A stretch of 64,000 nt of DNA from an uncultured Flavobacteriaceae bacterium (GCA_964626685.1 CAZVJY010000001.1:173881-237880); one strand, 5' to 3'; positions 1,501 through 62,837 are shown, counted from the stretch's first letter. A program made the numbers and translations. The notes: a model not told the origin generated them from the letters alone.

Positions 1501-1518
1501 TAGTGTACATTTGACACA
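1501..1518. promoter_or_regulatory. NrtR-type operator TAGTGT-acatttg-ACACA overlapping the susC -7 promoter element TACATTTG (1506-1513)
   Basis: GT-N7-AC palindrome 12 bp upstream of the susC ATG; same core at 15028, 15839 and 19188. Confidence 0.75.
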
Positions 1519-1530
1519 CCGAGTTTCTTT

Positions 1531-4500
1531 ATGAAAAAACACATACCCATTCTTTTGATTCTGTTTTTTTCGGGAATAATTCCTGTACTGGCGCAGAATC
1601 CAACCCTTACCGGCAAGGTAAAGAATCAAAGCGGCAAAGCCGTGGAAGGTGCTATTATCAAGACTTCTACCGGTGAAACCGCCGCAACTTCAGATGTGAA
1701 CGGCAATTTTTCCATTGTACTGCCTGTTGGGAATCACACACTAACCATCTCGGCGAAAGATTACCAGGAAATCACCGAAACCGTGAGTGTAAAACCGGGA
1801 CAGACTATCCTTCCCGATATCACCCTAAATCCAACATCTGATGTGGGTGAAGTGGTAATTATCGGTTACGGCACCACCACCAAACGCGATCTTACCGGCT
1901 CAGTAACTTCACTGAAAGGGGCCGATGTACAGGACATGCCCACACCCAGTTTTGAAGCAGCCATACAGGGTAAGGCACCCGGTGTGCAGATTACCACTGG
2001 AAGCGGTGTGGCGGGTTCAGGCACACTGGTACGCATTCGCGGTGTAGCCTCTATTTCGGCCGCAGGTGATCCGCTTTACATTGTGGATGGTATTCCCATC
2101 TCTCAGAATTACTTCGTAAATGGCAATAATGGGGGCTTCAACAACAACCCGCTTGCCACGCTAAACCCCGAGGATATTGAATCCATAGAAATATTAAAAG
2201 ATGCCGCTGCCACATCCATTTATGGTTCGCGCGGCTCAAACGGTGTAATTTTAATTTCCACCAAGCGTGCCAAAAAAAGCGGTTTGAAATTTGATTTCAC
2301 CTCCCGTGTCGGTACATCACAGCCTACATTCCGCCCACAAATGCTAAACAGCAAGCAATTTCTTCAGCTGTATCAGGAAGCCTGGGAAAATGATGGCGGA
2401 ACCGGCCGCGCTCCACTCCCCAACAATATATCCTGGGAAGAAGCAGAAAAAACCAATACCGACTGGATAGATGAAACTATGGGTATGGGCATCAAACAGA
2501 TGTATTCTTTGGGAACCACCTACCGCAAAAACAAGCTGGGGGCTTATCTTGGTCTAACTTACGACAACAACGGAAGTTTTGTTATCGGAAGCCGCTACAA
2601 GCGCAGTTCTGCCCGTTTGAATGTGGATTATGAACCTATCAAAAACCTGACCCTGAATTTGAGCTCATCCTATACACAAGGTATCAATAATCGTGTGGAC
2701 GGTGCATGGAGCGGTGGCTTTGGAGCGGCTATGAGTACTGCCCTCCCGATCTATCCTGTATATGATACTTCGGGCAACTTCTGGAGGCCCGGCGCAGGAA
2801 GCCTCAATCCGGTGGCTGTCCGCAATCTGAAAGACTGGAGAACTACAGAAAACCGGACCATCAACAACTTCAAGGCTTCCTACAAAATTTCAGACAAATG
2901 GGTAGTATCTGCTTTTGCTGCAATGGATAACATGGACTTCTTTGAAGACATTTACGAGCCAAAAGCCCTGATCAACACCAACCATGCAGGGATTGCAAAA
3001 CGTTCACCACGCAGCACGTTCAACTACAACTATAACCTGATTACAAACTACAACATCCTCAACACCGAAAAACAAACGCTGGATGCGATGGTGGGTACAG
3101 AATTTCAGAAATCCATCGTAAGATCCAGCTATATAGAAGTGAGCGATATGAGTCACGGGCTTCATAAAGGCGAACAGGGCGGTGCCGCTTCTACCCGATT
3201 GGAACGGAAAAATGCCACCGAAGCCTTCGCTTTTGCTTCCTACTTCCTCCGTATGAACTACAAACTGCAAAACAAATACATTCTGCAGTTTACTATGAGA
3301 ACGGACGGATCCTCTCGTTTCGGTCCCAATAATGCCTATGGTTTCTTCCCGGCCGTATCTGGTGCATGGGTAGTGAGCGATGAGAACTTCATGCGCAACT
3401 TCCGCCGCAACAACTTCCTGAAAGTGAAAGCCGGTTTTGGCCGCACCGGAAACACCCCGAATGAAAATTATGCGTGGCGTGGTACTTTTACCCCACCTCA
3501 GAATTCTTTTGGATACAATGGCTTACCAAGCATTTTCCCCACCCGTTTGGAAAACCCCGATCTGAAATGGGAAACCTCCGATGTGCTTGACGTTACCTTA
3601 GAAGGCGGCCTGATGAAAAACCGCATTACCTGGGAACTTTCATATTACAACAAAACCACCAACGGTGTAATCCTGGACCTTGCTGTGCCTCGCTCACTCG
3701 GATTCTCGTCATACTATGACAACGTGGGTGCGGTTCGCAACACCGGTATTGAATTTTCGTTTACCTCAAGAAATATCGTTAAAAAACTGTTCTCCTGGAC
3801 CACCCAGTTCAACATTGCCAGAAACTACAACGAGATCCTGAATATTGGTGTTTACACCCAGGATGCCGTATCTGGCGGCACCAACGATACCCGTGTGGTG
3901 GTAGGACAGCCGATTGGCACCAACTACCTGGTGCGCTTTTCACATGTTGACCCCGCAACTGGAAGACCTGTTTATCTTGACAGAAACGGCAATGAAACCT
4001 TTACCTGGACCAACAATGATCGCGTAGCGGTGGGTAGCGTACTGCCCAAAGCTGTGGGTGGATTAACCAACAACTTCACCTGGAAAAACTGGAACCTCAG
4101 CTGCCTGTTCGTTTATAAAATTGGCGGCAACATCTATAATTCCAGTGGAAAGCGCCAGAATGGTGTGGTTACTGACTGGAACATGACCACAGACTACTTC
4201 GACCGCTGGCAGCAACCCGGCGATGTGGCCAAATACCCAAAATTGTCTATGCAAACCAATCAGTACGGATTGCCTCCTGATCCTTTCCAGTATAACACCA
4301 CTTTGTTCTTGGAAGATGGAAGCTATCTGCGTTTGCGCAACCTCTCTATCGGCTACCGCATTCCTGCCAAATGGTTTGGAAAGGCCATTCAATCCAGCCG
4401 CATCATCTTCACCGGTACCAACCTGCTAACCTTTACCAAATTCACCGGTGGCGATCCTGAAATTGCCCGCGATTTCGAAAATCCGGCCGACAGAAACATG

Positions 4501-4572
4501 AGCTCGAATATCACCTACCTGACCGCACCTCAGGAAAAGTCTTACAACCTAACCCTTAATCTCACCTTCTGA
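1531..4572 (+). CDS. susC: SusC/RagA TonB-dependent outer-membrane transporter
   Basis: Signal peptide, VVIIGYG, LKDAAATSIYGSRGSNGVILISTK SusC signature, NPDLKWET, C-terminal LNLTF. Confidence 0.95.
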   Translation: MKKHIPILLILFFSGIIPVLAQNPTLTGKVKNQSGKAVEGAIIKTSTGETAATSDVNGNFSIVLPVGNHTLTISAKDYQEITETVSVKPGQTILPDITLNPTSDVGEVVIIGYGTTTKRDLTGSVTSLKGADVQDMPTPSFEAAIQGKAPGVQITTGSGVAGSGTLVRIRGVASISAAGDPLYIVDGIPISQNYFVNGNNGGFNNNPLATLNPEDIESIEILKDAAATSIYGSRGSNGVILISTKRAKKSGLKFDFTSRVGTSQPTFRPQMLNSKQFLQLYQEAWENDGGTGRAPLPNNISWEEAEKTNTDWIDETMGMGIKQMYSLGTTYRKNKLGAYLGLTYDNNGSFVIGSRYKRSSARLNVDYEPIKNLTLNLSSSYTQGINNRVDGAWSGGFGAAMSTALPIYPVYDTSGNFWRPGAGSLNPVAVRNLKDWRTTENRTINNFKASYKISDKWVVSAFAAMDNMDFFEDIYEPKALINTNHAGIAKRSPRSTFNYNYNLITNYNILNTEKQTLDAMVGTEFQKSIVRSSYIEVSDMSHGLHKGEQGGAASTRLERKNATEAFAFASYFLRMNYKLQNKYILQFTMRTDGSSRFGPNNAYGFFPAVSGAWVVSDENFMRNFRRNNFLKVKAGFGRTGNTPNENYAWRGTFTPPQNSFGYNGLPSIFPTRLENPDLKWETSDVLDVTLEGGLMKNRITWELSYYNKTTNGVILDLAVPRSLGFSSYYDNVGAVRNTGIEFSFTSRNIVKKLFSWTTQFNIARNYNEILNIGVYTQDAVSGGTNDTRVVVGQPIGTNYLVRFSHVDPATGRPVYLDRNGNETFTWTNNDRVAVGSVLPKAVGGLTNNFTWKNWNLSCLFVYKIGGNIYNSSGKRQNGVVTDWNMTTDYFDRWQQPGDVAKYPKLSMQTNQYGLPPDPFQYNTTLFLEDGSYLRLRNLSIGYRIPAKWFGKAIQSSRIIFTGTNLLTFTKFTGGDPEIARDFENPADRNMSSNITYLTAPQEKSYNLTLNLTF

Positions 4573-5957
4573 TGAAAAACATGCTAAAAACATATGCCAT
4601 AGCTGCAGCCATCGGTATCAGCGCTATTGGGGTTTCCTGCAAAAAAATGCTGGATCTGAAACCCGAAAATTTAACCCTGGCTGAGGACGCCCTTAAGACC
4701 ACGGCCGATGTTCAGGCCTTGCTGAATTCATGCTACGACGAATTTGCCAACCTCATGAATGGCTCGGTACAAAACATTCACGAACTGCTGGGTGAAAATG
4801 TGGCACAGCCTCAGAACTCAGCAGGAAGCCTGTATTATACCATCTGGAACCGTGGTACTTTCTCGTTCAGAACCGCAGACCGAGAATACCTGGATTTTTA
4901 CAACTGCATACTCCGCATCAATACCATTTTTGAACGTATTGACGCTGTTTCGGATATGACTCCGGAGAATAAAAAGCGAATTCTGGCAGAAGGGCGATTC
5001 CTGAGGGCATGGTGCCACTGGGAGCTTGTAAAATTGTGGGCCCAGCCTTTCGGTTATACTGCTGACAATTCTCATCCCGGTGTGCCCATTCGCCTGAAAG
5101 CCGACAAAACCATAGAACTGAGAGCCAGTGTAGGTGCGGTTTACAATCAGGTTCTCGCAGATCTGGATGCTGCCATTGCAGATTTGCCTGCCAGCAATAA
5201 CAATTATGCAAACGCAGCCGCAGGAAAAGCTCTCAAGGCCAAGGTGCTTTTCATGATGAACGATTTCAGCGGTGCACAAACTTTAGCCGATGAGATCATT
5301 AACAGCGGAACCTACACCTTCTCTGACTCATTTTCGCGCTTTGTAAAAGGTGCCCCTGAAGAAATCATCTTCCAGCTAATCAGCACAGGTAACAGTGACA
5401 ACCGCGGCAGCTCATTCATCAATAACTACCGCTCGGACAACAACCCCAATCCCATTTTGAGACCTTCAGCCGCATTCGCTGCTGTTGCCATGCAGGGCCA
5501 CGATTTGCGCAGCAAGTTTTATGAAGTGAAGAACAAGGGCAAAGCCAATGAATTCTATTTGTGTCACAAATTTGACAAAGATTTTTTCAATGTTCCCTTA
5601 ATTCACTTGTCAGATATATTGCTGATGAGGGCTGAGTGCATTGTTGAAAACGGTGGCGACAAAATCAAAGCCATTGCAGATGTGGACAAGATCAGAAAGC
5701 GCGCCTATGATACCAACTGGATTGCCATAGACCCGCTGATCAGCACAGCTGCCCTGAAAGACTCCATCCGTCACCAGCGCCGTCTAGAACTGGCTTTTGA
5801 AGGAGACTGGACACTGCAGCTGCGCAGAAGAGGTGCCAAAGGAGAGAATATTAAAATCAGAAACAGCGATTGGAACTGCCCCGGCATGCTGATACAGTTT
5901 CCCCAAAGCGAAAACACGGCAGGATTTATCTTTAACACTGAAGGAGGATGCAACTAA
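4572..5957 (+). CDS. susD: SusD/RagB family lipoprotein
   Basis: Lipobox GVSC, AEGRFLRAW, ALKAKVLF, RRLELAFEGD; translationally coupled to susC. Confidence 0.9.
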   Translation: MKNMLKTYAIAAAIGISAIGVSCKKMLDLKPENLTLAEDALKTTADVQALLNSCYDEFANLMNGSVQNIHELLGENVAQPQNSAGSLYYTIWNRGTFSFRTADREYLDFYNCILRINTIFERIDAVSDMTPENKKRILAEGRFLRAWCHWELVKLWAQPFGYTADNSHPGVPIRLKADKTIELRASVGAVYNQVLADLDAAIADLPASNNNYANAAAGKALKAKVLFMMNDFSGAQTLADEIINSGTYTFSDSFSRFVKGAPEEIIFQLISTGNSDNRGSSFINNYRSDNNPNPILRPSAAFAAVAMQGHDLRSKFYEVKNKGKANEFYLCHKFDKDFFNVPLIHLSDILLMRAECIVENGGDKIKAIADVDKIRKRAYDTNWIAIDPLISTAALKDSIRHQRRLELAFEGDWTLQLRRRGAKGENIKIRNSDWNCPGMLIQFPQSENTAGFIFNTEGGCN

Positions 5958-6424
5958 TGAAAAATATGTTTATCACGGCCGCAGTGGCATTCCTGCTAGT
6001 GCTGCCAGCCTGTAAGAAAAACAACCTTGAACTCAACGATGCTTCCAGCAAACTGGAAGGCATACAGGACGTGTGGGTGCTGGATGAAGTGAAACAGTTT
6101 GATCCCGCCAACAAAGACCTGGTACTGGATGTGACAGATGTTTTTAAAGGAGTTACACCCATTGAACTGAATGTAAATTCTAAGGATCTAACCTATGTGT
6201 TTAACCAGCCCAATCCCCTGTTTCTGGGAAGCAGCGGAACTTGGAAATTTGACGACAACAATTTCCCTACCCAGATAGAGATGACCGGCGATGCCGGTGT
6301 TCAAACCGTTAAGCTGCTCAGGACTGTAAGAACCGTAGATCAGAAACTCAGCATTCAGCTCACCCGCTACTGTGGTGGCGGAACCCCAAGTACCATCTAT
6401 CAATTTAGCTTTGTAAGAAAATGA
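5957..6424 (+). CDS. Small PUL lipoprotein (DUF5004/lipocalin-like)
   Basis: Lipobox LPAC, GxW and GTWKFDD beta-rich motifs; directly after susD; start taken at MKNMF. Confidence 0.6.
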   Translation: MKNMFITAAVAFLLVLPACKKNNLELNDASSKLEGIQDVWVLDEVKQFDPANKDLVLDVTDVFKGVTPIELNVNSKDLTYVFNQPNPLFLGSSGTWKFDDNNFPTQIEMTGDAGVQTVKLLRTVRTVDQKLSIQLTRYCGGGTPSTIYQFSFVRK

Positions 6425-7308
6425 AAAATAACTGGATTCAATATGTGGCCGTTGCCCTGGTAGGATTGTTTTCGGCCAATGCATACGGGCAGGCTGCTTA
6501 CCTCGATAAACCTGAAGAGTTTGATCCTACCAAGCCCTGCAAAATCATGGTAAACCTTAAGTTGACCAAAAATGACTGGGGAATTGTAGACATTGCCACC
6601 ACCGAAGATATGTATATCTGGACCTGGAAGCCCAAAGAACACCCTGCAGGTCACCCACTGGCAAACGGAATAGGCTCTCAGGCATGGAAAAGCAGCAATG
6701 ATGCTTTGAAAATGACCAAGGAATCTGAGGGTGTTTACAGTTTCACCATGATACCTACGGTATTCTACGAGTGTGATGCGGCCACGGTTTACAAAGAGGA
6801 CTTTCATTTTCTTGTTAAACCCAAAGACGGTGGCGGATACGGTGATCCGGATAAAAAAACGGAAGATCTGACCATTGCGGTGGATCCCCCCTCCGGTCCT
6901 GTGGTAAAAATTCAAACTGTACCCATCGGTAAAGGTTTGAAGAAAGACACCATGATTACCGCAACAGCGGATGTTTTCAGCGTGATATACAACAACAACG
7001 CCGAAGAAAAATTAACCATGCAGAATGCTACTGAATTGTATGTATATCCCATCGCATATGACTCGGCAGGAATGGCATACAAAATTGCCGCAAATGCGAA
7101 AAGAGCCGGAGATTTCCCTCAACTGAAGATGAAGCAGACAGCCAAAGGTATTTTCCAGTTCAGCATTATCCCCGAGAAGTTTTTCAATATACCCGCAGGT
7201 AAAAAAATCTACCGCATTGAATACCAGATTGTGAAACCCAACCTGGTAAACACCGATGACGCTATTGATGATAAAATGATTTATCAGTTTAACCAAGGCG
7301 GTTGCTAA
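6421..7308 (+). CDS. Secreted non-catalytic protein with two CBM98/DUF4961-like modules
   Basis: SpI signal (ANAYG-Q); LKMTKESEGVYSFTMIPTVFY and LKMKQTAKGIFQFSIIPEKFF resemble KMTYSGNNIYRIKIFIPTFY in the GH13 at 20636. Confidence 0.55.
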   Translation: MKNNWIQYVAVALVGLFSANAYGQAAYLDKPEEFDPTKPCKIMVNLKLTKNDWGIVDIATTEDMYIWTWKPKEHPAGHPLANGIGSQAWKSSNDALKMTKESEGVYSFTMIPTVFYECDAATVYKEDFHFLVKPKDGGGYGDPDKKTEDLTIAVDPPSGPVVKIQTVPIGKGLKKDTMITATADVFSVIYNNNAEEKLTMQNATELYVYPIAYDSAGMAYKIAANAKRAGDFPQLKMKQTAKGIFQFSIIPEKFFNIPAGKKIYRIEYQIVKPNLVNTDDAIDDKMIYQFNQGGC

Positions 7309-8743: not shown

Positions 8744-8744
8744 A

Positions 8745-15020: not shown

Positions 15021-15044
15021 CAAACTTAGTGTAATTATTACACA
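15021..15044. promoter_or_regulatory. Minus-strand -7 element TAAGTTTG (15021-15028) abutting operator AGTGT-aattatt-ACACA (15028-15044)
   Basis: In the divergent intergenic region between the kinase operon and the regulator. Confidence 0.75.
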
Positions 15045-15118
15045 TAGCCAAAGGAACCTTGATGATTATTGATACAAAAAAAACCAAAGTTACTATATTT
15101 GTGAACCCCATTTTTGCT

Positions 15119-15829
15119 ATGCCCCAACAGGCCATAAATCCCAATGTTTCCGTAGACTGTGTCATTTTCAGTTTTAATAATCAGGAACTGGAAGTACTGT
15201 TGATTGAGCGTTCAGCCGGCAATACCGACAAGATAGATGAAATCAAGGCGTTGCCCGGAAACCTGATTTATGAAGATGAAACCCTCGATTGTGCGGCACA
15301 GCGCGTTTTAACTGAGCTCACCGGTCTGGAAAACATTTTCCTGGAGCAGGTTTATACTTTCGGTGATCCTGACAGAATCAGCAAAAAACACGACCAGGAC
15401 TGGCTCAGAAGTATTCGAGCACATCCCGAAGCCAGGGTAATTACTGTGGCCTACACCTCGCTCATCAACAAAGAAAGATTCAATCTCACACCCTCAAGTT
15501 TTGCACGCAATGCCGTTTGGATAAAGGTAAAAGACGTGCCCCAACTGGGATTTGACCACAACGATATTCTGGAAAAAGCACTGGACCATCTCAAGCACAA
15601 AATATACATTGAGCCACTGGGTTATGAGCTGCTACCGGACCGGTTTACCCTTGCCCAGTTGCAGAAACTGTACGAGGCGATATTGGATGATACGTTTGAT
15701 AAAAGAAACTTCCGCCGTAAAATCCTGCGAACCTTATTCATTGTGCCCCTGAATGAAAAACAGCAAGGCGTTGCCCACAAGCCGGCCGGACTCTACCGAT
15801 TTGACAAATCCCTGTTTCATCAGATGTAA
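15119..15829 (+). CDS. NrtR-family NUDIX-wHTH transcriptional regulator (alpha-glucan locus)
   Basis: SVDCVIF, ALPG...ELTGL degenerate Nudix box, TFGDPDR, FTLAQLQKLYEAIL, DKRNFRRK, HKPAGLYRF; -7 element TATATTTG at 15094-15101. Confidence 0.9.
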   Translation: MPQQAINPNVSVDCVIFSFNNQELEVLLIERSAGNTDKIDEIKALPGNLIYEDETLDCAAQRVLTELTGLENIFLEQVYTFGDPDRISKKHDQDWLRSIRAHPEARVITVAYTSLINKERFNLTPSSFARNAVWIKVKDVPQLGFDHNDILEKALDHLKHKIYIEPLGYELLPDRFTLAQLQKLYEAILDDTFDKRNFRRKILRTLFIVPLNEKQQGVAHKPAGLYRFDKSLFHQM

Positions 15830-15892: not shown

Positions 15893-17224
15893 ATGGAAAA
15901 GAAACCCAAACTTACGGCTGCACAAATCACCTGGATGAGCTTTGGCTTCATGGGAATTCAGTGTGGTTTCGGCCTGCAAAATGGGAATGCAAGTCGCATC
16001 CTTGAAGATTTTGGCGCCAAAGTGCACGAGCTCAGTTGGTTTTGGCTGGTGGCACCGCTTACCGGCATGCTCGTACAGCCGCTCATCGGATATTTCAGCG
16101 ATAAAACCTGGACACCGCTTGGCAGACGAAAGCCTTATTTTCTGGCCGGCACGCTGCTTTGCTGCATTGCCATTGTGATGCTGCCCAATAGTGCTGCCTG
16201 GTTTGCGGGAAAATCCGCCCTGCTTTTTGGCGCTATTTTTCTTGCCCTGATGGATGCCAGCATAAACGTAGCCATGGAACCGTTCCGCGCTTTGGTGGCA
16301 GACAATCTCAATGATGAACAGCGCACCCTGGGCTTCAGCATTCAAACTTTTTTAATCGGTATTGGTGCTGTACTGGGCAGCTGGCTCCCCTGGATGATGA
16401 CCAACCTGTTTGAAATCAGCAATACTGCTCCTAAAGGCTTGGTTGCAGACAATGTAGTGTATTCCTTTTACGTGGGTGCAGCGTTTTTTCTGGCTAGTAT
16501 TCTCGTAACCGTGCTTTTTGCAAAAGAATATGACCCTGAAACATATGCCCGCTATCACGGCGAAAGCAGGGAAGAAGAAAAAGCGGGCCTGTCTGAAATT
16601 TTCAGGGATTTTGGCAGAATGCCGAAAGCCATGCTGCAGCTGGGGTTGGTGCAATTCTTCAGCTGGTTTGGTTTGTTTTGCATGTGGGTTTATACCACCA
16701 GGGCCGTGGCAGACAATGCTTTCGGCTACGATGGCACCCAAAAAGATATTCTTGGCAAAGCCGGCGACTGGGTTGGAATATTGTTTGGCATTTACAATGG
16801 CGTGAGTGCCATATACGCGCTGATTCTCCCGGCGATTGTGCGGAAAATCGGCCGCAAACAAACCCATGCATTCTCGCTGGTTTGCGGTGGCATTGGCCTT
16901 ATCTCCATGTTCTTCATCACCAATCCTGATATGCTTGTATACAGCATGGTGGGCGTTGGCATGGCCTGGGCCAGTATACTTGCTATGCCCTATGCCATAC
17001 TGGCAGGAAGTATACCTGCAGGGAAAATGGGCATATACATGGGTATCTTCAACTTCTTCATTACCATACCACAGATTGTGAGCGCTTTGCTGGCTGGCCC
17101 AATGGTCTCTTTTCTCTTTGACAATCAGGCGATCTATGCGCTGGTAACCGCCGGCCTTATGATGCTGCTGGCTGCCGTTTCCATGATTTATGTGAACGAT
17201 GGCAAACTGATTAAAATGAAGTAA
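15893..17224 (+). CDS. MFS maltose/maltodextrin transporter (SLC45/GPH-like)
   Basis: Multiple TM helices; MSFGFMGIQCGFGLQ, QPLIGYFSD, GRRKPYF, GMAWASILAMPY, MGIFNFFITIPQI. Confidence 0.88.
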   Translation: MEKKPKLTAAQITWMSFGFMGIQCGFGLQNGNASRILEDFGAKVHELSWFWLVAPLTGMLVQPLIGYFSDKTWTPLGRRKPYFLAGTLLCCIAIVMLPNSAAWFAGKSALLFGAIFLALMDASINVAMEPFRALVADNLNDEQRTLGFSIQTFLIGIGAVLGSWLPWMMTNLFEISNTAPKGLVADNVVYSFYVGAAFFLASILVTVLFAKEYDPETYARYHGESREEEKAGLSEIFRDFGRMPKAMLQLGLVQFFSWFGLFCMWVYTTRAVADNAFGYDGTQKDILGKAGDWVGILFGIYNGVSAIYALILPAIVRKIGRKQTHAFSLVCGGIGLISMFFITNPDMLVYSMVGVGMAWASILAMPYAILAGSIPAGKMGIYMGIFNFFITIPQIVSALLAGPMVSFLFDNQAIYALVTAGLMMLLAAVSMIYVNDGKLIKMK

Positions 17225-17307: not shown

Positions 17308-19143
17308 CTATTTACCCTTCTTTGGATAATGCACCACCGAAACACCCATAGGGTCTACTGAAGAAACCTGCAAAACCCTGGTTTCGGGATTCAGCAAGAC
17401 AATGCCTTTTTCCCATGTGGCTTTAATGTCAGGGTAGCGGCGGCTATCAACATGCTGCGGTTTTTCTGATTGGTTTACAAATACACCAATTATGTCTCTT
17501 TCACCCTCTATAAAGAATGCATACAATCCGTTGTAGGGGATGTACTGTGTACGTCGACCCTTCTCAAACAATTCGGCATAGCGTTCACGTATTCCGGCCA
17601 GGCCTTTTATGCAATCAAATATTTCACGCTGATCGGAGCTAAGTCCTTCTGCGGTAAAACCATTTTTTTTATCATCCTTCCATCCACCGGGTGCATCCCT
17701 GCGAATTGCACCATGGGCCCCCGTATCGGTCATCAGCCATTCAGTGCCGTAAAAGATGCAGGGAATTCCACGGCTCAAATACATTAATGCCAGTGCCATT
17801 TTGGTTTTGGATAAATTCTTTCCAAACGTAGCGTGCATACGGTTTAAATCATGATTATCGGCAAAGGTTACCAGCATTTCAGGCTTTTGATATACATAAT
17901 CTGAAGCCATGAGGTAATACAATCGGCTGACACCTGTATTCCAGCCAAAAGGCTCGTTCAACGCCTGATGCAGACCGAAACAAAATTGAAAATCGGTTAC
18001 CGCATCCGGTAACCCCATACTCGTAAAAAGCCTATTGGGAGCAAAAACGGACTGCGCCGCCAGGGTATGTTCCCAGGTTTCACCAAACACAAACAAGCCG
18101 GGAAACGCTTTTTTAAGATCCAAATTAAGCATTGTCAAGAAACCCGGTTTTGAATATGGATATGTATCTACCCTTACGGCAGAAGCAGATGTGGTTGCCA
18201 CCCACCACAGCGTATTTTGAATGAGATACCGCGCCACGTGCTGATTTTCCTGATTTAAATCCGGCATGTGATGATCAAACCAGCCTTCCAGCATCGTTTT
18301 CACTTCAGAGGGCGCTGCATAAGGATCACTTAAAGCCGAAACCCTATAATTGCTCCGAAAGAAAGTATCCCGAATGTGAAACCAGTCATCTGAAATCCGT
18401 TTTTTGTACAAAGGATGTTCATTCCCTACATGGTTGTACACCATATCCAGCACCCACCTGACACCTTGTTGACGGCTTTTTTCGGCCAGTTTAAAATATT
18501 CTTCATTGCTGCCAAACCGCGGATCGATGCGGTAATGATCGGTGCAGGCATACCCATGATAGCTTTGGGACGGCTGGTTATTTTCCAGCAAGGGCGTCAT
18601 CCAAAGGGCATTGAAGCCCAGTTTTTTTATGTGATCAAGGTTTTTTGCCACACCGGCTACATCGCCACCATGCCTGCCGTGCAGGGCGGTTCTGTCTGCC
18701 TTTTCCAGCATACCATCAACATTATCATTACTTTCATTCCCATTGGCAAACCGGTCCGGCATAAGCAAATACATGCGGTCTGCTGCGCTCATCTTAGCCC
18801 CGGAAAACGGTTTTTCCCTTACCTCATATTTTAACGTTTGTTTTCTGCCAGAAAGAGTAGTTTCAAGAAAAAAATCACCCTGTCCCTGCTTGACCCGCAG
18901 GTATAAAATTCTATATCCCGCATTTAACCTTTTTACGTCTGAAATTAGCCTGGGACCACCCTTGATTCGGATTGAAGCCATGTGAACCGAATCTCCATAC
19001 AACAAAATCTGGAAGCTTTCCTGGCCCATATTTTTAAACCAAAACGGAGGATCGCAACGCCTGATGTGCTGAGCTCCGGAATGAACCAAAACAAATGTTT
19101 GGATCAATAAAAAAAGACTGATTTTAGGTCTTAAAAACTTCAT
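17308..19143 (-). CDS. GH13 neopullulanase/cyclomaltodextrinase (SusA-like)
   Basis: DPPFWF N-terminal domain, PDRFANG, RHGGD, SYHGY, GWFDHHMPDLNQ, RVDTYPY, DNHD; start placed at MKFL. Confidence 0.88.
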   Translation of the reverse strand: MKFLRPKISLFLLIQTFVLVHSGAQHIRRCDPPFWFKNMGQESFQILLYGDSVHMASIRIKGGPRLISDVKRLNAGYRILYLRVKQGQGDFFLETTLSGRKQTLKYEVREKPFSGAKMSAADRMYLLMPDRFANGNESNDNVDGMLEKADRTALHGRHGGDVAGVAKNLDHIKKLGFNALWMTPLLENNQPSQSYHGYACTDHYRIDPRFGSNEEYFKLAEKSRQQGVRWVLDMVYNHVGNEHPLYKKRISDDWFHIRDTFFRSNYRVSALSDPYAAPSEVKTMLEGWFDHHMPDLNQENQHVARYLIQNTLWWVATTSASAVRVDTYPYSKPGFLTMLNLDLKKAFPGLFVFGETWEHTLAAQSVFAPNRLFTSMGLPDAVTDFQFCFGLHQALNEPFGWNTGVSRLYYLMASDYVYQKPEMLVTFADNHDLNRMHATFGKNLSKTKMALALMYLSRGIPCIFYGTEWLMTDTGAHGAIRRDAPGGWKDDKKNGFTAEGLSSDQREIFDCIKGLAGIRERYAELFEKGRRTQYIPYNGLYAFFIEGERDIIGVFVNQSEKPQHVDSRRYPDIKATWEKGIVLLNPETRVLQVSSVDPMGVSVVHYPKKGK

Positions 19144-19187
19144 AATTTGGTAAAAATATTTCAACAAAGAAAAAAAATATCCTTCAA

Positions 19188-19222
19188 TGTGTCCAATTTA
19201 CACTTATTAATTTTTATTTTTG
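19188..19222. promoter_or_regulatory. Operator TGTGT-ccaattt-ACACT (19188-19204) and plus-strand -7 element TATTTTTG (19215-19222)
   Basis: Fourth GTGT-N7-ACAC copy, between divergent susA-like and T9SS genes. Confidence 0.72.
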
Positions 19223-50673: not shown

Positions 50674-52341
50674 ATGAAAAAAATCTTTACTATTTTGATG
50701 CTTGGGGCCGTTTTCTCAGGATTGATGGCACAAAAGCAGGTTACATTCAAAGTAGACATGAACAACTACACCGGTGGTTCATTTACTACTGTTTATGTAA
50801 GTGGTTCGTTCAACTCCTGGTCCGGAAACAGCAATGCACTGACGGATACAGACGCTGATGGTGTTTGGGAAGCTACTTTCCCCATCACTGATGATTCCAT
50901 TGAGTACAAATTCACTATGGACAATTGGAGCAAACAGGAGTCTCTCACACCCGGCAGTTCTTGTACCAAGACTACCGGCGGATTTACCAATCGCTTTGTT
51001 AGGCTTACAGGCAACGTTACCCTCAGCAAGGTTTGTTTTGAAAGCTGCTCGGCTTGTACTCCGGTGACCAACAAATCCATCACTTTCAATGTGAATATGA
51101 GACAATACACCGGCACCTACACCAATGTTTACGTTTCGGGCAATTTCAACGGATGGTCTGGTAACAGCAATCAACTTACGGATACAGACGGTGATAAAAT
51201 CTTCACCGGCACATTTGATATTACCCAGGATTCCATTGAATATAAATTCACAGTAGACAACTGGAAAGACGATGAGAAACTGACCGCAGGAAGCACATGC
51301 ACCAAAACCACCGGCAACTTTACCAACCGTTTCCTGAAAGTAACAGGACCAAAGGTACTCGGCAAGGTTTGCTGGGGTAGCTGCAGCGAGTGCACCAATG
51401 ATGTTACCTTTAAGGTTGACATGAACAAATATAAAGGCGCTCCCTTTAACGGTGTATTTGTAAACGGCAGTTTCAACGGATGGTGCGGCAGCTGCAATCC
51501 CATGTCAGACGCGGATAAAGATGGCATCTGGGAAGTAAAACTGCCTTTGCCACAAGATTCTATTGAATATCTTTTCACACTGGACACCTGGAGAGTACAA
51601 GAAAAAATGGCTCAGGGTAGCTCCTGCACCAAAACCGTAGGGCAATTCACCAACCGCTTCCTGAAAATTACAGGCGCCACTGTTCTTGATACTGTATGCT
51701 TTGAATCCTGCCTTAGCTGCGCCGATACCAAACAGAAGGTTAATGTGACCTTCAAGGTTGATATGAGCAAGAACACCGCTACATTCACTACGGTAAACAT
51801 CAATGGTACGTTCAACAACTGGTGCGGCAACTGCAATACTATGACCGATGCCAATAACGACAAGGTTTATGAAATAACCCTTCCTATCAATGCCACAGAC
51901 ACTTTCGAATACCTGTTTACCCTTGATGGCTGGGCTACCAAAGAAATCTTTACCGGAGGTGAAAGCTGCACCAAAACCACAGGCCAGTTTACCAACCGTA
52001 TGGGTGTGGTTACTTCAGACTCCACTATGCCTGCAGTATGCTGGGAAAAGTGTGTAACCTGTGCAACTGCTGGCACTGCTACCATTGCTGCACATGGTGT
52101 GAAAGTATTCCCCAACCCCGGCAACGGATTGTTTAATGTAACTGCTTCATTCAGCAACCTCACTGCAGGAAACATCGAAGTGTATGATGTAGTAGGCCAG
52201 AAGCTTTACAGCAAAGACTTCACAGGAAAAACCATCAACACCGAAATCAACCTTAACAGCGCCAAGCCCGGCATGTATCTGATGGTTATCAATACCGCAG
52301 AAGGCAGCTACCAGGAGCGCATCTTCATCAACAGCAAATAA
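50674..52341 (+). CDS. Non-catalytic T9SS-secreted protein with four tandem Cys-rich Ig/CBM-like repeats
   Basis: Signal peptide MKKIF...LMAQ; four repeats; CTD VFPNPG...YDVVGQ...GMYLM. Confidence 0.85.
   Translation: MKKIFTILMLGAVFSGLMAQKQVTFKVDMNNYTGGSFTTVYVSGSFNSWSGNSNALTDTDADGVWEATFPITDDSIEYKFTMDNWSKQESLTPGSSCTKTTGGFTNRFVRLTGNVTLSKVCFESCSACTPVTNKSITFNVNMRQYTGTYTNVYVSGNFNGWSGNSNQLTDTDGDKIFTGTFDITQDSIEYKFTVDNWKDDEKLTAGSTCTKTTGNFTNRFLKVTGPKVLGKVCWGSCSECTNDVTFKVDMNKYKGAPFNGVFVNGSFNGWCGSCNPMSDADKDGIWEVKLPLPQDSIEYLFTLDTWRVQEKMAQGSSCTKTVGQFTNRFLKITGATVLDTVCFESCLSCADTKQKVNVTFKVDMSKNTATFTTVNINGTFNNWCGNCNTMTDANNDKVYEITLPINATDTFEYLFTLDGWATKEIFTGGESCTKTTGQFTNRMGVVTSDSTMPAVCWEKCVTCATAGTATIAAHGVKVFPNPGNGLFNVTASFSNLTAGNIEVYDVVGQKLYSKDFTGKTINTEINLNSAKPGMYLMVINTAEGSYQERIFINSK
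50740..52062 (+). repeat. Four intragenic repeats of about 106-114 codons
   Basis: Units start at 50740, 51079, 51403 and 51745; each [VI]TF.V[DN]M...G.FN.W...D.D.D...EY.FT.D.W...CTKT.G.FTNR...VC..C..C. Confidence 0.92.
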
Positions 52342-55477: not shown

Positions 55478-56167
55478 TTATCTGCTTTTTCTTACCAGTT
55501 TAATATTATCGAAATACACATCTCCGTCAGCCTCAAACTGTATGATAAACTGTTTTATCATATCGGGCTGGGCCTGAAATCGGTCAAAAGGAAATTCCGT
55601 GAGTGGAATCAGCGCTGTTGTCCATTGTCCGGGCATAATACGGCTGCCATTAAGGTATTTGGCGGAAAATCCGATAAAACACTGAGCGCCTGTGTAATCT
55701 TCGAGTGCCAGAGCCAACGGCAAGGATTTCAAGGTGTCGGTTTGTGAACGGATCTGTATTTGAATGCAGGCGGAATCCAGTATGCCCGACAAATCCTTGG
55801 GTTGCCAGTTATCCCAGCCAAAGCCCATTCCTATCCATTTGCAGCCACCGGCTATTTTATCCCATTTGGCACGCATACAATAGGAACCGGAAGCAGGCCG
55901 ATTGTCAACCTTTGTTACTGAAACACATGCCGACTCTTTGGATACCCAGATATCAGAGCCCATGCTTTCATCGAAAAGCTCCAGCGCACTGAAACCACCG
56001 ATATCAGCGATAGTTCGCGTTTCAGCATAATCGTACAGCTCCATTTTTTTCATACGAAGAACCCCTTTCGTTATGTGTACAGTATCCAAATTGCGTACAG
56101 CCGTGTCCTGTGCGTGGAGGGCGCTGCACAGCAACATCAGGCTAAGAACACAAGACAATGCTTTCAT
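55478..56167 (-). CDS. Secreted stand-alone carbohydrate-binding-module-like protein (CBM11/CBM30-like jelly roll)
   Basis: SpI signal ALHAQ; WIGMGFGWDNW..KDLS, WTTALIPLTEF, VYFDNIKLV. Confidence 0.6.
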   Translation of the reverse strand: MKALSCVLSLMLLCSALHAQDTAVRNLDTVHITKGVLRMKKMELYDYAETRTIADIGGFSALELFDESMGSDIWVSKESACVSVTKVDNRPASGSYCMRAKWDKIAGGCKWIGMGFGWDNWQPKDLSGILDSACIQIQIRSQTDTLKSLPLALALEDYTGAQCFIGFSAKYLNGSRIMPGQWTTALIPLTEFPFDRFQAQPDMIKQFIIQFEADGDVYFDNIKLVRKSR

Positions 56168-57171: not shown

Positions 57172-58898
57172 CAGAATGTCATGTTATAAATGGCCTGCAT
57201 CTGTCCGATACTGTAATCCCGGTATGACTGGGCCTTGTTTTGAAATTGCATGCGCTGATACATGAGCGCCAGGTAAGTCTTGCCACCAAAGCGAACACGA
57301 AGTCCGGCTGCGGCCGTGCTGTGTTTTTGATTGGCTGAGAATCCTGCAAAATCGATAACCTCGGTATATTCGTTGCGCACGGCCATCATATCGTTTCCTT
57401 TGCCTTGCAGCACAGTATAGCCACCCAGCAAATCAATGTCCTTCATCACCTCTACTTCCATACCGGCCGACCATTGCAGAGAAGTCAAGTCCAGCTCTTC
57501 ATACGCGCGGGTGCTTTTACGCCGGGTGTTCTGGTCACAGGCAGACAATAGCAACTTCGCTTGTTTTTTTAAACCCAGCAGCTTTCCTGCATCGCAGATT
57601 ATATCCAGGCGGGTCATATCCATCTTTTTCAGCTCGGGTGTTCCCTGCCCTAAAATTTCAGATAAACGCCAGCGTTGCGCATCGATTGTTATAGTATTTT
57701 TTACAATATTATACTTTGCCTTTGCATAAAAACCCTGCCTGTTAAAGGTCGCTATTCCATATGGAAGCACATTGTTTATTAAAGGATTGTAGGCCATCAG
57801 CCTTGTATTGATACCGGTGCGGTAGAGATTGGTGTTGCCAATAAAATCCAACAGATGAAGAGGCCGGTCTATCTGCATTTGGGTATAGCGGTTATACAAT
57901 AAGGGTTGTGCATTGTAATCGATACGCTTGGACTGCGCAGCCATACTCCTGAAATCGGGTCCCACATTGATATAACCCGCTTCGGCCTCCCAGCGTTTGC
58001 TGCCGGGAGCAACTTTTACAAAACCATGAACAAAAAAGTCCTGCAGGTGTGGTGATGCGGTATCATGCACCATGCGGTAGGATGAATTGCCGGCTTCGCC
58101 TCCGAATGTGAACAGCTGTTTGGTGATTGCCTGCTTCCATTCCCAAGACAAGGTTTGCACCGTATTCTGAAACAACAGTGGTTGTGTTGCGGTTTCCTTA
58201 ACATCAAAAATGCGGCTGATATTGTAAGCCAGGGTGGCCTTTTTGTTCCATACCCAGTTGGCGGTTGCCCCTGTGTGCAGGCGTTCGGGCTGGCTGCCGA
58301 AATTGGTGGCATTCAAACGGGTAAGGTATCCATGAAAGTTCCAGTCAGATTTGAGTTTTACGGATTCCAATCCAAAATCTGCCGCCGCTCCCTGTTGCCG
58401 CCAGGTTCCGGGCACGAAAAAGGATTCGTAGTTTACAATATCCCGCTGAAGATCAAATACTGCAGGCTGCTGCATGCACCGGTCCTCATCGTGGTTCCAG
58501 AAAGTAAACGGTGTCTGTTTAAGGTTGATATCACCCAGCTGGTAACGGACTTTATCGGCAATCACGCCTTTTAACCAAAGCTGACGAACATCAAAGGATA
58601 CGCCCGCACCCCAGAAACCGCCAAAACGGTTATTGATGCGAATCATACCCAGTATTTCGGTGTTTTTATTGGGTCGAATATTGAAACCCAAATCTATAAG
58701 GGCATATCCACCGGCGTTTTTGGGAGCAGTGACCTTGTCAGGAACACTGTCCTTCACTTGCAATTCGGAGTTGGCCAAAACCGAACGCGCACCCCCTTTC
58801 ATACTAAACTTGGGGCTGTTTTGTGCAAGCATTACCATAGGCATTGCCGCTGCAAGGAAACCGAAAATTTTAATGCTATTGCGTATGAGTATTTTCAT
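57171..58898 (-). CDS. Uncharacterised predicted outer-membrane beta-barrel protein B
   Basis: SpI signal, amphipathic strands, C-terminal QAIYNMTF beta-signal; no TonB plug motifs recognised. Confidence 0.6.
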   Translation of the reverse strand: MKILIRNSIKIFGFLAAAMPMVMLAQNSPKFSMKGGARSVLANSELQVKDSVPDKVTAPKNAGGYALIDLGFNIRPNKNTEILGMIRINNRFGGFWGAGVSFDVRQLWLKGVIADKVRYQLGDINLKQTPFTFWNHDEDRCMQQPAVFDLQRDIVNYESFFVPGTWRQQGAAADFGLESVKLKSDWNFHGYLTRLNATNFGSQPERLHTGATANWVWNKKATLAYNISRIFDVKETATQPLLFQNTVQTLSWEWKQAITKQLFTFGGEAGNSSYRMVHDTASPHLQDFFVHGFVKVAPGSKRWEAEAGYINVGPDFRSMAAQSKRIDYNAQPLLYNRYTQMQIDRPLHLLDFIGNTNLYRTGINTRLMAYNPLINNVLPYGIATFNRQGFYAKAKYNIVKNTITIDAQRWRLSEILGQGTPELKKMDMTRLDIICDAGKLLGLKKQAKLLLSACDQNTRRKSTRAYEELDLTSLQWSAGMEVEVMKDIDLLGGYTVLQGKGNDMMAVRNEYTEVIDFAGFSANQKHSTAAAGLRVRFGGKTYLALMYQRMQFQNKAQSYRDYSIGQMQAIYNMTF

Positions 58899-60751: not shown

Positions 60752-62106
60752 GGCTGGTCAAAACTTTGTAAATCGTATCTCTTAAATCTGAGTTTTTTAC
60801 TGCCTTCCGGAGCAGCTGCATCCCTCACCAGAAAAGGCATATTGGCATAGGCAACCTTGTTTTTATAGTGTATAGTTACAAACAAACGGTACGCGCCGGA
60901 CTGGCGGGGTGCTTTGAACTGCAGTTCAAAATCGTTGGCTTTTTTAATAAACCCGCTTATTTCAGATGCCTCATTTTCAAGATCGCCACCGGCTTTTTTA
61001 TCATCGCTTTCTGCGAGCATTTTCCATTCTATTCTGTAACTGCGCGGACTATTGCTTTCCTCCGCTGTGGCCCTCAGCAGGACTGCTTTCACCAGTGCAC
61101 TGTTCAAAGAACCCGCATCAACCGTAATATTATCTGAGGCTACTTTTGAATTGATGAACAGTCCGTTTACTGAGGGGGTGGGGGTTACAGGCCATTTACC
61201 ATTCCACAGCCTGTATAAATTGTCTATTGCCTCGGTTTGTTTGTTTTCTTTTGTAAACAGGCCGTACCATGTGAGGGTATACTCCTGTTTTTGTCCCCAT
61301 AAAAACACATAGGAACCAATACAATGCTGGCTATCCGCCTTAATGTACTTTATATACCGATCCCAGTACACATCGGCTTTTTCGCGGCTAGTTTGCTCGA
61401 TTGCCGCATTCCAGGATGTTACCGGCGATTCCCAGTGTCCATTGGGCCCCCATTCGGTTATCATGTAAGGACCGTTCCAGCCAAACCGTCCTATGTTTTT
61501 GGGTACACCAGCAATATCACCGTAGGTATTTATACCATAAACATCAATATCAGGAGCTTTTTCGAGAATATGCTGTACCTCCATGGAATCCAGTCCTGCC
61601 GTGACGGTACAGGTGGGATGGTTGGGGTCCGTTTCGTGTATATATTTTGCTATAGCCTGAATGCTATGCCACACTTTGGTATTGCTGTAAAACAGATCCA
61701 CCTCATTGCCAATACCCCACATCAACAGGGCGGGATGGTTTTTATAGCGGTCCACCACCGATTTAAAATGCTGTATTTGTTTCTGTACAGCCAGATTATT
61801 ATCGTAGTCAAATCCGTGGCGCTCATGCTGCACCCACATTCCAAGCATCACCATTAATCCTTTGCTATAGGCCTCATCCAATATGCGCTGCGCATCGTCT
61901 ATTCCCCAGGTGCGGATGGTATTGCCGCCACAATCTACGAGCAGGTCAAGCTGAACCGTTCCTCCGGCGCCTTTGATGTAATAGGGCTGTCCGTTCTTTA
62001 GCAATTGCCACTGCCCGTTTTTTTGGACAACCTTAATCATGGCAGGCTGCGCTAACACTGGAAGGTGTGCCGCAATGAAAATTAATATGAATGCAATTAC
62101 TCTCAC
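60748..62106 (-). CDS. Clan GH-A TIM-barrel glycoside hydrolase, GH158-like (endo-beta-1,3-glucanase), often annotated GH2 TIM barrel
   Basis: YYIKGAGG, GGNTIRTW, HPALLMWGIGNE (acid/base), YMITEWGP (nucleophile), C-terminal Ig GAYRLF. Confidence 0.72.
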   Translation of the reverse strand: MRVIAFILIFIAAHLPVLAQPAMIKVVQKNGQWQLLKNGQPYYIKGAGGTVQLDLLVDCGGNTIRTWGIDDAQRILDEAYSKGLMVMLGMWVQHERHGFDYDNNLAVQKQIQHFKSVVDRYKNHPALLMWGIGNEVDLFYSNTKVWHSIQAIAKYIHETDPNHPTCTVTAGLDSMEVQHILEKAPDIDVYGINTYGDIAGVPKNIGRFGWNGPYMITEWGPNGHWESPVTSWNAAIEQTSREKADVYWDRYIKYIKADSQHCIGSYVFLWGQKQEYTLTWYGLFTKENKQTEAIDNLYRLWNGKWPVTPTPSVNGLFINSKVASDNITVDAGSLNSALVKAVLLRATAEESNSPRSYRIEWKMLAESDDKKAGGDLENEASEISGFIKKANDFELQFKAPRQSGAYRLFVTIHYKNKVAYANMPFLVRDAAAPEGSKKLRFKRYDLQSFDQP

Positions 62107-62801
62107 TACAGGATACCCCCTTCAAAGCCCAGCTGCTTGGCTTTTGCAGCGTTGTAACGATAGAGCATGGCAGGTCGGTGTGTAACATTTTTCTGAAGCC
62201 TACCCGTTTCTTCTATAATACCTGATGACAAAATCTTTTTTCTAAAGTTTCTTACATCAAATTCTTCTTCCAGAATACTTTCATGAATAAACTGCAGTTC
62301 CGTCAGGGTAAAATATTTGGGCAACAGTTCAAATACCAGCGGCTGCGTGCGGATTCGGTTTTTCAGCAAACGGCGGGCGTATTCAAGAATATCGCGGTGA
62401 TCGAATGGCAGCTTCGGAATTTCCGTAACCTTGAACCATGCTACATCCTTGGCCCAGGAGGCTGCCTGTGGATGGTAGTTTTCTACCTTTATCAGGGCAA
62501 AATAAGCAATGGTAAAAACCCTGCCAAACGGGTGTCTGTCCACACTGCCGAATGTTTGTATCTGCTCCATGTAAACCTGATCCAGACCAGTGAGCTGTTT
62601 AAGCACCTTTTCGGCGGAGTATTCCAGATCCATTTCGGGGGCAATCAGATCACCGGGCAAAGCCCAAGAACCGGTAAAAGGTTCCGAACCGCGTGAAATG
62701 AGAAGTACTTTCAATCCATCGGCGTCGAATCCAAATACCACATTGTCTACAGAAACCGCAACATTGAAGTATTGCTTGAGTGTTTTCTTGAGATTTTTCA
62801 T
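62106..62801 (-). CDS. NrtR-family NUDIX-wHTH transcriptional regulator (beta-glucan locus)
   Basis: SVDNVVFG, WALPG, TFGSVDRHP, LPFDH, FTLTELQ, DVRNFRKK, HRPAMLYRY. Confidence 0.9.
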   Translation of the reverse strand: MKNLKKTLKQYFNVAVSVDNVVFGFDADGLKVLLISRGSEPFTGSWALPGDLIAPEMDLEYSAEKVLKQLTGLDQVYMEQIQTFGSVDRHPFGRVFTIAYFALIKVENYHPQAASWAKDVAWFKVTEIPKLPFDHRDILEYARRLLKNRIRTQPLVFELLPKYFTLTELQFIHESILEEEFDVRNFRKKILSSGIIEETGRLQKNVTHRPAMLYRYNAAKAKQLGFEGGIL

Positions 62802-62812
62802 TGGGTTTGAAG

Positions 62813-62837
62813 CAAATATATTGTAAAAAGTACAATA
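62813..62837. promoter_or_regulatory. Minus-strand -7 element TATATTTG (62813-62820) overlapped by operator TATTGT-aaaaagt-ACAATA (62819-62837)
   Basis: Palindrome directly upstream of the NrtR-led operon. Confidence 0.78.

Follow-up and report, generated by a model that had tools for sequence, protein, structure and literature searches.

A stretch of 64,000 nucleotides from an uncultured freshwater Flavobacteriaceae bacterium (hereafter the window; C1:173881-237880 of an assembly of 44 contigs and 2,317,496 bases) carries an alpha-glucan locus and a beta-glucan locus, each with its own gene for a regulator of the NrtR type, here called NrtR-a and NrtR-b. With a probability of roughly 80%, the two are paralogous AraR-like members of the NrtR family, each acting as a local repressor on a private class of operators, GTGT-N7-ACAC in the alpha-glucan locus and TATTGT-N7-ACAATA in the beta-glucan locus. 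As judged from the sequences, both would thus belong to a known family of regulators, in which an exchange of G for T in the operator and of Lys for Val in the protein appears to act as a specificity switch. Little is known of how Bacteroidota outside the gut regulate their use of polysaccharides, and the regulators described for starch and beta-glucan loci (SusR, BguR and the hybrid two-component systems, HTCS) are membrane sensors. The present loci suggest that both storage glucans are served by cytoplasmic repressors of the Nudix type, which are widespread among uncultured Flavobacteriales of fresh water.

An earlier note on this DNA had listed four GTGT-N7-ACAC and three TATTGT-N7-ACAATA sites. 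All seven are present, 0–3 bases from where they had been placed: the GTGT-N7-ACAC cores begin at 1503, 15029, 15842 and 19189, and the TATTGT-N7-ACAATA palindromes at 50588, 50611 and 62819. In shuffles of the window, the alpha-type core occurs 0.66 times on average and reaches four matches in 0 of 100, while the beta-type palindrome has a mean of 0.00, with 0 of 100 shuffles yielding even one. The bare TTGT-N7-ACAA core is without enrichment, its four matches in the window being equalled by 20 of 100 shuffles; the information of the beta class therefore lies in its extended arms. Across the 2,317,496 bases of the genome there are 19 matches to GTGT-N7-ACAC, four of which fall within the 17.7-kb alpha locus, and three to TATTGT-N7-ACAATA, all in the window. 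Once over-long TTG starts are discounted, all seven sites are intergenic.

Both classes were then turned into position weight matrices. The alpha matrix was built on 20 of 29 core matches from 15 relatives' loci, with two matches in coding regions, six from two same-genus loci and one duplicate excluded, and the beta matrix on eight sites. A genome scan with both, as the earlier note had suggested, ranks the sites of the window at the top. Three alpha sites (a2, a4 and a3 below) are among the top four alpha matches and the fourth (a1) holds rank 8, while the top five beta matches (b3, b1, b2, b4 and b5) all lie in the window. The reversed genome, used as a null, contains no alpha match of at least 16 bits and no beta match of at least 20 bits. 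The predicted operators are as follows.

1500..1520: predicted alpha operator a1, ATAGTGTACATTTGACACACC, upstream of SusC; comparatively weak, its right arm being degenerate, 14.0 bits with the alpha matrix
15026..15046: predicted alpha operator a2, TTAGTGTAATTATTACACATA, in the divergent region between the kinase operon and NrtR-a; the genome's top alpha score, 26.7 bits
15839..15859: predicted alpha operator a3, ATAGTGTTTGTTTGACACTAT, between NrtR-a and a major facilitator superfamily (MFS) gene; 20.9 bits with the alpha matrix
19186..19206: predicted alpha operator a4, AATGTGTCCAATTTACACTTA, in the divergent region between a glycoside hydrolase family 13 (GH13) gene and the gene of a protein sorted by the type IX secretion system (T9SS); 23.9 bits with the alpha matrix
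50587-50607 and 50610-50630: predicted tandem beta operators b1 and b2, 2 bp apart, upstream of a T9SS gene with four CBM48-like carbohydrate-binding modules (CBM48x4-T9SS); 26.7 and 25.4 bits with the beta matrix
62818..62838: predicted beta operator b3, ATATTGTAAAAAGTACAATAA, in the promoter of the NrtR-b operon; 29.4 bits with the beta matrix
57689..57709: candidate auxiliary beta operator b4, in an open reading frame (ORF) of 587 amino acids (aa); 24.1 bits
59829..59849: candidate auxiliary beta operator b5, in a 617-aa ORF; 22.0 bits

The regulators themselves stand beside these sites. Only two proteins of the genome match PF21906, one per locus, and they share 41% identity.

15119..15829 (ORF from 15059), plus strand: NrtR-a, Nudix domain and winged helix, recognition helix D-K-R-N-F-R-R-K
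62106-62801, minus strand: NrtR-b, head of its operon; the helix aligns as D-V-R-N-F-R-K-K

The presence of one gene with a Nudix domain and a winged helix in each locus, as the earlier note had it, is borne out by the ORFs 15059-15829 (+) and 62106-62801 (-), both of which match PF21906, PF19368 and PF00293. The N-terminal domain has the Nudix fold (PF00293, E 7.6e-07 for NrtR-a and 5.5e-07 for NrtR-b), and the C-terminal domain is an NrtR-type winged helix (PF21906, E 2.2e-25 and 2.2e-24; PF19368, AraR_C, about E 1e-12). In keeping with the NrtR family, 21-bp palindromes with a GT-N7-AC core lie beside the regulator genes and their putative targets. For both proteins, the closest relative of solved structure is the L-arabinose repressor BtAraR from Bacteroides thetaiotaomicron (BT0354; PDB 5BS6, 5DDG, 5DEQ; PMC4666351). 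The match (E 2.5e-42 for NrtR-a, 1.9e-49 for NrtR-b) extends across its whole Nudix domain. As in AraR, the alignments show the R-E...E-E residues of the Nudix box replaced in both proteins. Neither keeps all six DNA-contact residues of AraR (Lys179, Arg180, Asn181, Lys184, Lys204, Arg205). By alignment, NrtR-a has K-R-N, Arg at position 184 and His-Lys in the wing, and NrtR-b has V-R-N-K and His-Arg in the wing. No ara genes were found in either locus, and the neighbours in relatives are likewise alpha- or beta-glucan genes.

The difference between the two operator classes finds a counterpart in this helix. In the structure of BtAraR with its operator, which is itself of the form GTGT-N7-ACAC, Lys179 forms hydrogen bonds to N7 and O6 of the first G (G7) of each half-site. 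Arg180 is intercalated at the T/G step, and the GT core is read by Asn181 together with Lys184 (PMC4666351). The residue equivalent to Lys179 is aligned as Lys in NrtR-a and as Val in NrtR-b. The sole base that differs between the classes is therefore the base touched by the sole helix contact residue that differs in kind. The earlier note had proposed that a G-to-T change just outside the core gives each paralogue its own regulon; on the protein side, this proposal is matched by a Val where the Lys179 of BtAraR contacts that base. A third class is formed by beta-like regulators of a sister family (L086-L095), together with one from G001 of the same genus (L094). Their helix reads D-K-P-N-F-R-K-K, so that residue 180 changes from Arg to Pro; the next base of the operator changes as well, from T to A. 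The sites of this class, approximately cTTAAAGTA-N5-TACTATAAG, lie beside GH158/GH3 loci.

The correspondence was followed across 186 distinct regulators from all fetched loci, whose rows are kin. A perfect GTGT palindrome lies near 95 of the 131 Lys-Arg regulators and 9 of the 25 with Arg-Arg, none of the latter having a TTGT palindrome. TTGT palindromes accompany 8 of 9 Val-Arg and 3 of 6 Thr-Arg regulators, with no GTGT palindrome in either group, and 6 of 10 Lys-Pro regulators have (A/T)AGT-N7-ACT(A/T), with 0 of the other types. On a tree of 66 rows, the Val/Thr state requires three changes, each with TTGT-type sites; starred branches of this quick tree force all three, and only one is supported in a large FastTree. 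The alpha clade forms one well-supported group (16 rows, SH-aLRT 99). Since the rows are kin, the link between Lys/Val and the operator base should be seen as a handful of events with a structural rationale, not as a statistic.

Both pairings of regulator and operator recur in relatives. The set examined comprises 41 genomes of the same order from two families, 29 of which have a regulator match. An exact GTGT-N7-ACAC stands beside the gene in 22 of 22 NrtR-a-type loci (48–100% identity, own included), mostly in the form [TA]AGTGT-N7-ACACT[AT]. Site a2 is kept in all 22, a4 is conserved in relatives, a3 is shared by the same-genus loci and G034, and a1 has a counterpart at the equivalent position in all three same-genus genomes fetched. 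In 15 fetched 20-kb stretches around NrtR-a, beta-phosphoglucomutase (beta-PGM) and GH65 genes always adjoin and a kinase-like gene does so in 14; further alpha sites stand before MFS, GH13 and T9SS genes and before units with GH13 or SusC. When public genomes were scanned, relatives of NrtR-a turned up in at least 587 stretches, and the 80 best were analysed. These are metagenome-assembled genomes (MAGs) labelled Flavobacteriales, Crocinitomicaceae, Cryomorphaceae and others. An alpha site of at least 14 bits lies within 300 bp upstream in 70 of these 80 loci, and four of the ten misses have no upstream DNA. At least one alpha-glucan gene is found in 68, a kinase-like gene in 66 (as the divergent neighbour of NrtR-a in 56), GH65 in 52 and an adjoining MFS gene in 42, while GH158 or GH3 occurs in none of the 80.

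For NrtR-b, all 10 same-genus loci (own included) keep TATTGT-N7-ACAATA at the position of b3, as do G020 (65% identity) and G013 (48%), and the tandem pair b1/b2 recurs in G004. A metagenome scan with the beta alignment returned 80 loci, 75 of which have Lys or Arg at position 179 and were taken as a contrast set, not as beta orthologues. Within these 80 loci, beta sites of at least 20 bits accompany 5 of 5 Val/Thr179 regulators and 0 of the 75 others. Beta-type regulators adjoin the GH158...GH3 module in G013, G004, G011, G005 and metagenome locus L180, and in G020 a polysaccharide utilization locus (PUL) of the laminarin type, GH3-GH16-SusCD. The idea of two paralogues with two operator classes thus holds beyond the window, as each class is conserved beside its own paralogue across genera. 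The same is true of the proposed partition of genes: NrtR-a loci contain maltose and alpha-glucan genes, and NrtR-b loci GH158, GH3, GH16 or GH144-type genes.

Some beta-clade regulators lie in other surroundings. In L079 (G017) and L080 (G021), they are found beside SusCD, Laminin_G_3, a PF10091 'glycoamylase' and GH3. PF10091 presumably corresponds to GH144, a beta-1,2-glucanase, and if so these neighbours suggest that the beta clade serves another beta-linkage too. A Thr179 regulator on a metagenome contig (L181 8652) has a 24.3-bit beta site directly upstream of zwf-pgl-edd, genes of oxidative glucose catabolism. On a public MAG contig (L169), a Val179 beta-type gene directly follows the alpha operon downstream, at its GH65 end, so that both paralogues flank one maltose operon.

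The position of the operators relative to the promoters suggests how they may work. The consensus of the Bacteroidota -7 box is TAnnTTTG. Such a box lies within the spacer of a1 (TACATTTG); on the minus strand, the boxes of the kinase operon (TAAGTTTG) and of the NrtR-b operon (TATATTTG) overlap the ends of a2 and b3, respectively. Others are found 9 bp downstream of a4 (TATTTTTG) and 13 bp downstream of b2 (TACCTTTG). The likely start of NrtR-a is the ATG at 15119, which yields a protein of 236 aa as in relatives and lies 17 nt past the -7 box TATATTTG at 15094-15101. Repression is the likely mode of action, since the operators overlap -7 or -33 promoter elements with the geometry known from BtAraR.

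In the mechanism that we infer from the sites, their enrichment and conservation, the gene contents and the residue–base correspondence, a non-catalytic, sugar-binding Nudix domain would be joined to a DNA-binding winged helix in each protein. NrtR-a, with Lys179 kept, would bind the 21-bp TAGTGT-N7-ACACTA at four maltose/alpha-glucan promoters, namely those of SusCD(EF), of kinase-bPGM-GH65-GH13-GH13, of the MFS gene and of the GH13 and T9SS proteins. NrtR-b, with Val179, would discriminate the other class and bind TATTGT-N7-ACAATA at its own GH158...GH3 beta-1,3-glucan operon and at the tandem pair before the gene of a secreted, CBM-rich protein. Dimers bound over the -7/-33 elements would block transcription, and a cytoplasmic sugar in the Nudix pocket would release them, as L-arabinose does for BtAraR.

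What this sugar may be is suggested by the pocket. In BtAraR, Arg34, Arg86 and His131 bind the arabinose hydroxyls, and Phe36, Gly48 and Phe49 pack against C4/C5 (PMC4666351). According to the alignments, both proteins retain Arg34, Arg86, His131, Gly47, Val92 and Phe129 and have other residues in place of Phe36, Gly48 and Phe49. NrtR-a has a specific insert of 15–16 residues with an invariant Trp, which immediately follows the Arg86 equivalent. Of the rows that were parsed, all 62 of alpha type (27 unparsed) contain it, and none of the 12 of beta type or the 4 of Lys-Pro type does. As the insert occurs in NrtR-a alone, the two regulators would have different ligands. Signal peptides are present in GH3, GH158 and the 617- and 587-aa proteins of the beta locus and absent from GH65, beta-PGM and the kinase-like protein; from this pattern, maltose would be split in the cytoplasm and beta-glucan degraded to glucose outside it. 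Pocket residues, insert and compartment logic together suggest maltose or maltodextrin for NrtR-a and glucose or beta-glucobiose for NrtR-b, each being a guess that we hold at somewhat under even odds. The extension of the family to glucan sensing, as first proposed, is supported with regard to the regulons, which lie in glucan loci; the ligand is most likely a small sugar and not the glucan itself.

Several observations weigh against two separate local repressors with private operators. Five of the eight sites in the beta matrix come from same-genus genomes. Among the 131 Lys-Arg regulators, four have a TTGT palindrome and 32 lack a perfect palindrome, and a comparison of residue 179 with the operator base by independent pairs gives one to three pairs, too few for a sign test. 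Site a2 lies about 50–70 bp upstream of the likely -7 box of NrtR-a, whose autoregulation is not evident, and a3, which separates NrtR-a from the MFS gene, is without a clear adjacent -7 box; one may ask whether it serves there as a roadblock. The CBM48x4-T9SS gene behind b1 and b2 matches the CBM48 'glycogen-binding' families of Pfam. It recurs beside beta-glucan loci (L196, L207, L261), and its modules of the CBM48/AMPK type may bind beta-glucan, or else a protein that binds alpha-glucan may belong to the beta regulon. An outsider match of alpha type (21.0 bits; C3:141060-141080 of the same genome, G000) lies at the junction of ctaA and ctaB (heme A and heme O synthase). Beta-clade relatives at beta-1,2-glucan-type loci and at zwf-pgl-edd hint that plain glucose is the effector of NrtR-b. 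If NrtR-b senses glucose, maltose catabolism could induce it too, and induction would then not be cleanly partitioned.

The correspondence at positions 179 and 180 invites a wider reading, which is tentative and probably goes too far. In this reading, the two residues would be a re-usable address code (Lys/Arg-Arg for GTGT, Val/Thr-Arg for TTGT, Lys-Pro for (A/T)AGT), with dialects that arose repeatedly in regulators of beta-glucan or glucose use and were selected for insulation. The Val/Thr dialect would, with the same reserve, have arisen at least three times, driven by insulation from a co-resident, GTGT-reading maltose regulator. In the 41 relatives searched, the second paralogue is of the Val/Thr or Lys-Pro type wherever loci were fetched and classified. 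If the code is true, paralogues would be insulated by one residue and one base pair.

Apart from this, a distant third NrtR paralogue (L096; G033 C6; 37–40% identity) has Arg-Arg at 179/180 and a GTGT-type palindrome nearby. It shares its genome with alpha-type and Lys-Pro-type regulators and is a possible exception to an insulation with one dialect per genome. Other members of the genus have a Val179 regulator at the head of their beta-glucan operon; in G001, the Lys-Pro regulator is found in this operon at the far end, which looks like the displacement of one class of beta-glucan regulator by the other.

Returning to two repressors with private operators, the strongest challenge is that both are real repressors but bind each other's sites or share an effector such as glucose, the loci being co-regulated or ranked. 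The operator classes differ by a single base per half-site, which makes some cross-binding possible, and under the alpha matrix b3 still reaches 12.7 bits. Near the Lys179 regulators L190, L206, L208 and L220 there are hybrid sites that combine a TTGT half with a GTGT half, and the presence of the beta clade at beta-1,2 and beta-1,3 loci and at zwf-pgl-edd would fit glucose as a common product. BtAraR with an R180K exchange still binds DNA, so recognition is over-determined (PMC4666351). Set against this are the two direct hydrogen bonds of Lys179 to G7 per half-site, of which Val is incapable, and the class-specific base itself, kept in nearly all conserved sites of many genera. Moreover, all alpha sites stay below 12 bits under the beta matrix, and the Trp insert of NrtR-a beside the Arg86 equivalent argues for different ligands. 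On balance, extensive cross-talk seems unlikely.

It is very improbable that the palindromes are bound by another factor, or are chance or structural repeats, with the NrtR genes as mere neighbours. The strong match at the unrelated ctaA/ctaB junction would favour this view; yet the 10 same-genus genomes that have this junction all lack the match there, for which reason it is probably due to chance and was rejected as a regulon member. The sites travel with the regulator genes across two families and 80 MAG loci, their geometry equals that of the crystallographic BtAraR operator, and the class of site changes when residue 179 or 180 changes. Least credible of all is a pair of classical ADP-ribose/NAD-responsive NrtR proteins or active Nudix hydrolases lying in sugar loci by chance: the best NCBIfam match of both is indeed the ADP-ribose-responsive equivalog NF050029 (E 9e-35 and 8.7e-46), but with 120.3 and 156.4 bits it falls far below the cut-off of 400, the closest solved relative is the sugar-binding BtAraR, the Nudix box is replaced in both, and the NAD genes are without sites in the matrix scan of the genome.

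The two regulators can thus be placed among known systems. They share with BtAraR the two-domain build, the degenerate Nudix box, the conserved Arg34, Arg86 and His131 and the best match in the PDB, and NrtR-a also the 21-bp palindrome with its GTGT-N7-ACAC core. Tandem sites at one promoter occur in both cases, 3 bp apart at araM of BtAraR and 2 bp apart at b1/b2 (PMC4666351). Unlike BtAraR, to which they are about 40% identical, they have alpha- or beta-glucan genes nearby instead of araMPRDAB. NrtR-b differs further by Val for Lys179 and TTGT operators, NrtR-a by Arg for Lys184 and the 15-residue insert in the Nudix domain, and both by the replaced pocket residues Phe36, Gly48 and Phe49. 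XylR (BT0791) of the pentose branch resembles them as a sugar-linked paralogue co-resident with another one and with a predicted GT-N7-AC core; unlike them, it is linked to xylose genes (PMC2330246, PMC4666351). NrtR proper (SoNrtR of Shewanella oneidensis, Slr1690 of Synechocystis) likewise combines PF21906 with a Nudix domain in dimeric repressors that read a GT-N7-AC core, but with ADP-ribose as the effector and a regulon of NAD synthesis.

In the available portions of the literature, members of NrtR in Bacteroidetes are linked to pentoses only (PMC2330246, PMC4666351), which agrees with the naming of AraR and XylR as the known sugar-responsive members in Bacteroides. The starch regulator is SusR (PMC3878776). 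SusR and BguR control loci similar to those discussed here, for starch/maltose and for laminarin or beta-1,2-glucan (PMC3878776; bioRxiv 10.64898/2026.01.10.698779). However, they are unrelated, membrane-spanning one-component activators that sense in the periplasm, whereas cytoplasmic Nudix-type repressors are predicted for the window. For laminarin, other types of regulator are described in the accessible parts of the BguR preprint (bioRxiv 10.64898/2026.01.10.698779) and of a Maribacter study, where neither Nudix nor NrtR is named. The literature searched, which did not extend to RegPrecise, yielded no regulator of the NrtR or Nudix type for loci of starch or beta-glucan. The operator motifs can be used for regulon prediction in MAGs. 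The pairing of Lys179 with G and of Val179 with T, anchored on a solved complex, offers a testable example of duplicated regulators gaining private operators and could yield orthogonal repressor/operator pairs for Bacteroidota genetics.

The gene map of the alpha-glucan locus was drawn from Pfam, NCBIfam and PDB sequence searches. It includes the canonical PUL feature of an adjacent SusC-like TonB-dependent transporter and SusD-like lipoprotein.

1531-4572, plus strand: SusC (Pfam; synteny in relatives)
4572-5957, plus strand: SusD (Pfam; synteny in relatives)
5948-6424, plus strand: SusE-like small lipoprotein
6421-7308, plus strand: DUF4961 SusF-like protein
14132-15004, minus strand: sugar-kinase-like gene, first of the leftward operon that runs from a2 (15004 to 7367)
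13485-14135, minus strand: beta-phosphoglucomutase (TIGR01990, above its cut-off)
11177-13471, minus strand: GH65, maltose-phosphorylase type
8745-11231, minus strand: GH13 with CBM48
7367-8866, minus strand: GH13
15893..17224, plus strand: MFS/GPH-type sugar symporter
17308..19167, minus strand: GH13 with a cyclomaltodextrinase-type N-domain, likely start ATG 19146
19147-20559 (ORF; likely start 19253), plus strand: T9SS-sorted X25/CBM-like protein
20636-23398, plus strand: T9SS-sorted GH13

The unit 1531..7308 is predicted to serve alpha-glucan uptake, and the symporter is likely an importer of maltose or maltodextrin. A look-up of RNA runs for 13000-21000 listed none that contains this region. 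The 5' ends of several ORFs are over-long (8745-8866, 11177-11231, 15059, 19147 and 50620), their TTG or GTG starts reaching into the gene upstream or into an operator; later ATG starts were preferred because signal peptides and relatives indicate them. A mask of ORFs of at least 120 aa in any frame was tried and not used: it left only 6% of the genome as 'non-ORF' and mis-scored true intergenic sites, because the ORFs were over-long or spurious.

The beta-glucan operon is a single minus-strand unit that extends from 62801 to 52393, starts with NrtR-b and is convergent with the CBM48x4-T9SS gene. Its synteny is found in G013, G039, G001, G004, G011 and G005.

50676..52341, plus strand: secreted T9SS protein with four CBM48-like modules (CBM48x4), likely start ATG 50676
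60748-62106, minus strand: GH158 (PDB 9oro, E 8.8e-97; 6pal, E 5.9e-67)
58898-60751, minus strand: secreted 617-aa protein, no family match
57171-58934, minus strand: secreted 587-aa protein, no family match
56167-57171, minus strand: lipoprotein of 334 aa
55478-56167, minus strand: protein of 229 aa like a surface glycan-binding protein (SGBP)
53238-55472, minus strand: GH3, closest to an exo-beta-1,3/1,6-glucosidase model
52393-53238, minus strand: lipoprotein of 281 aa

The canonical PUL pair SusC/SusD was not found in 52393-62801, where no Plug, TonB-barrel or SusD match appears even at E 0.1. The place where it would stand is taken by the minus-strand module 55478-60751, which consists of the 617- and 587-aa proteins, the 334-aa lipoprotein and the SGBP-like protein and which is syntenic in the same six genomes and in metagenome contigs L180 and L196. 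The 617- and 587-aa proteins have no Pfam, NCBIfam or PDB sequence match and no detectable similarity to each other; a feature search in a protein atlas led to DUF6029 (0.96), which is to be taken as a lead. The module may be an alternative outer-membrane device for glycan uptake.

The genes of these two large proteins harbour the candidate auxiliary operators. The position of b4 is not common to G004; for b5, G004 and G005 have one-mismatch sites at the equivalent place. These sites may be auxiliary operators, acting by looping or as a roadblock, or may be a sign of rapid site turnover. Two to three intragenic sites are found in same-genus genomes too, in part at other positions.

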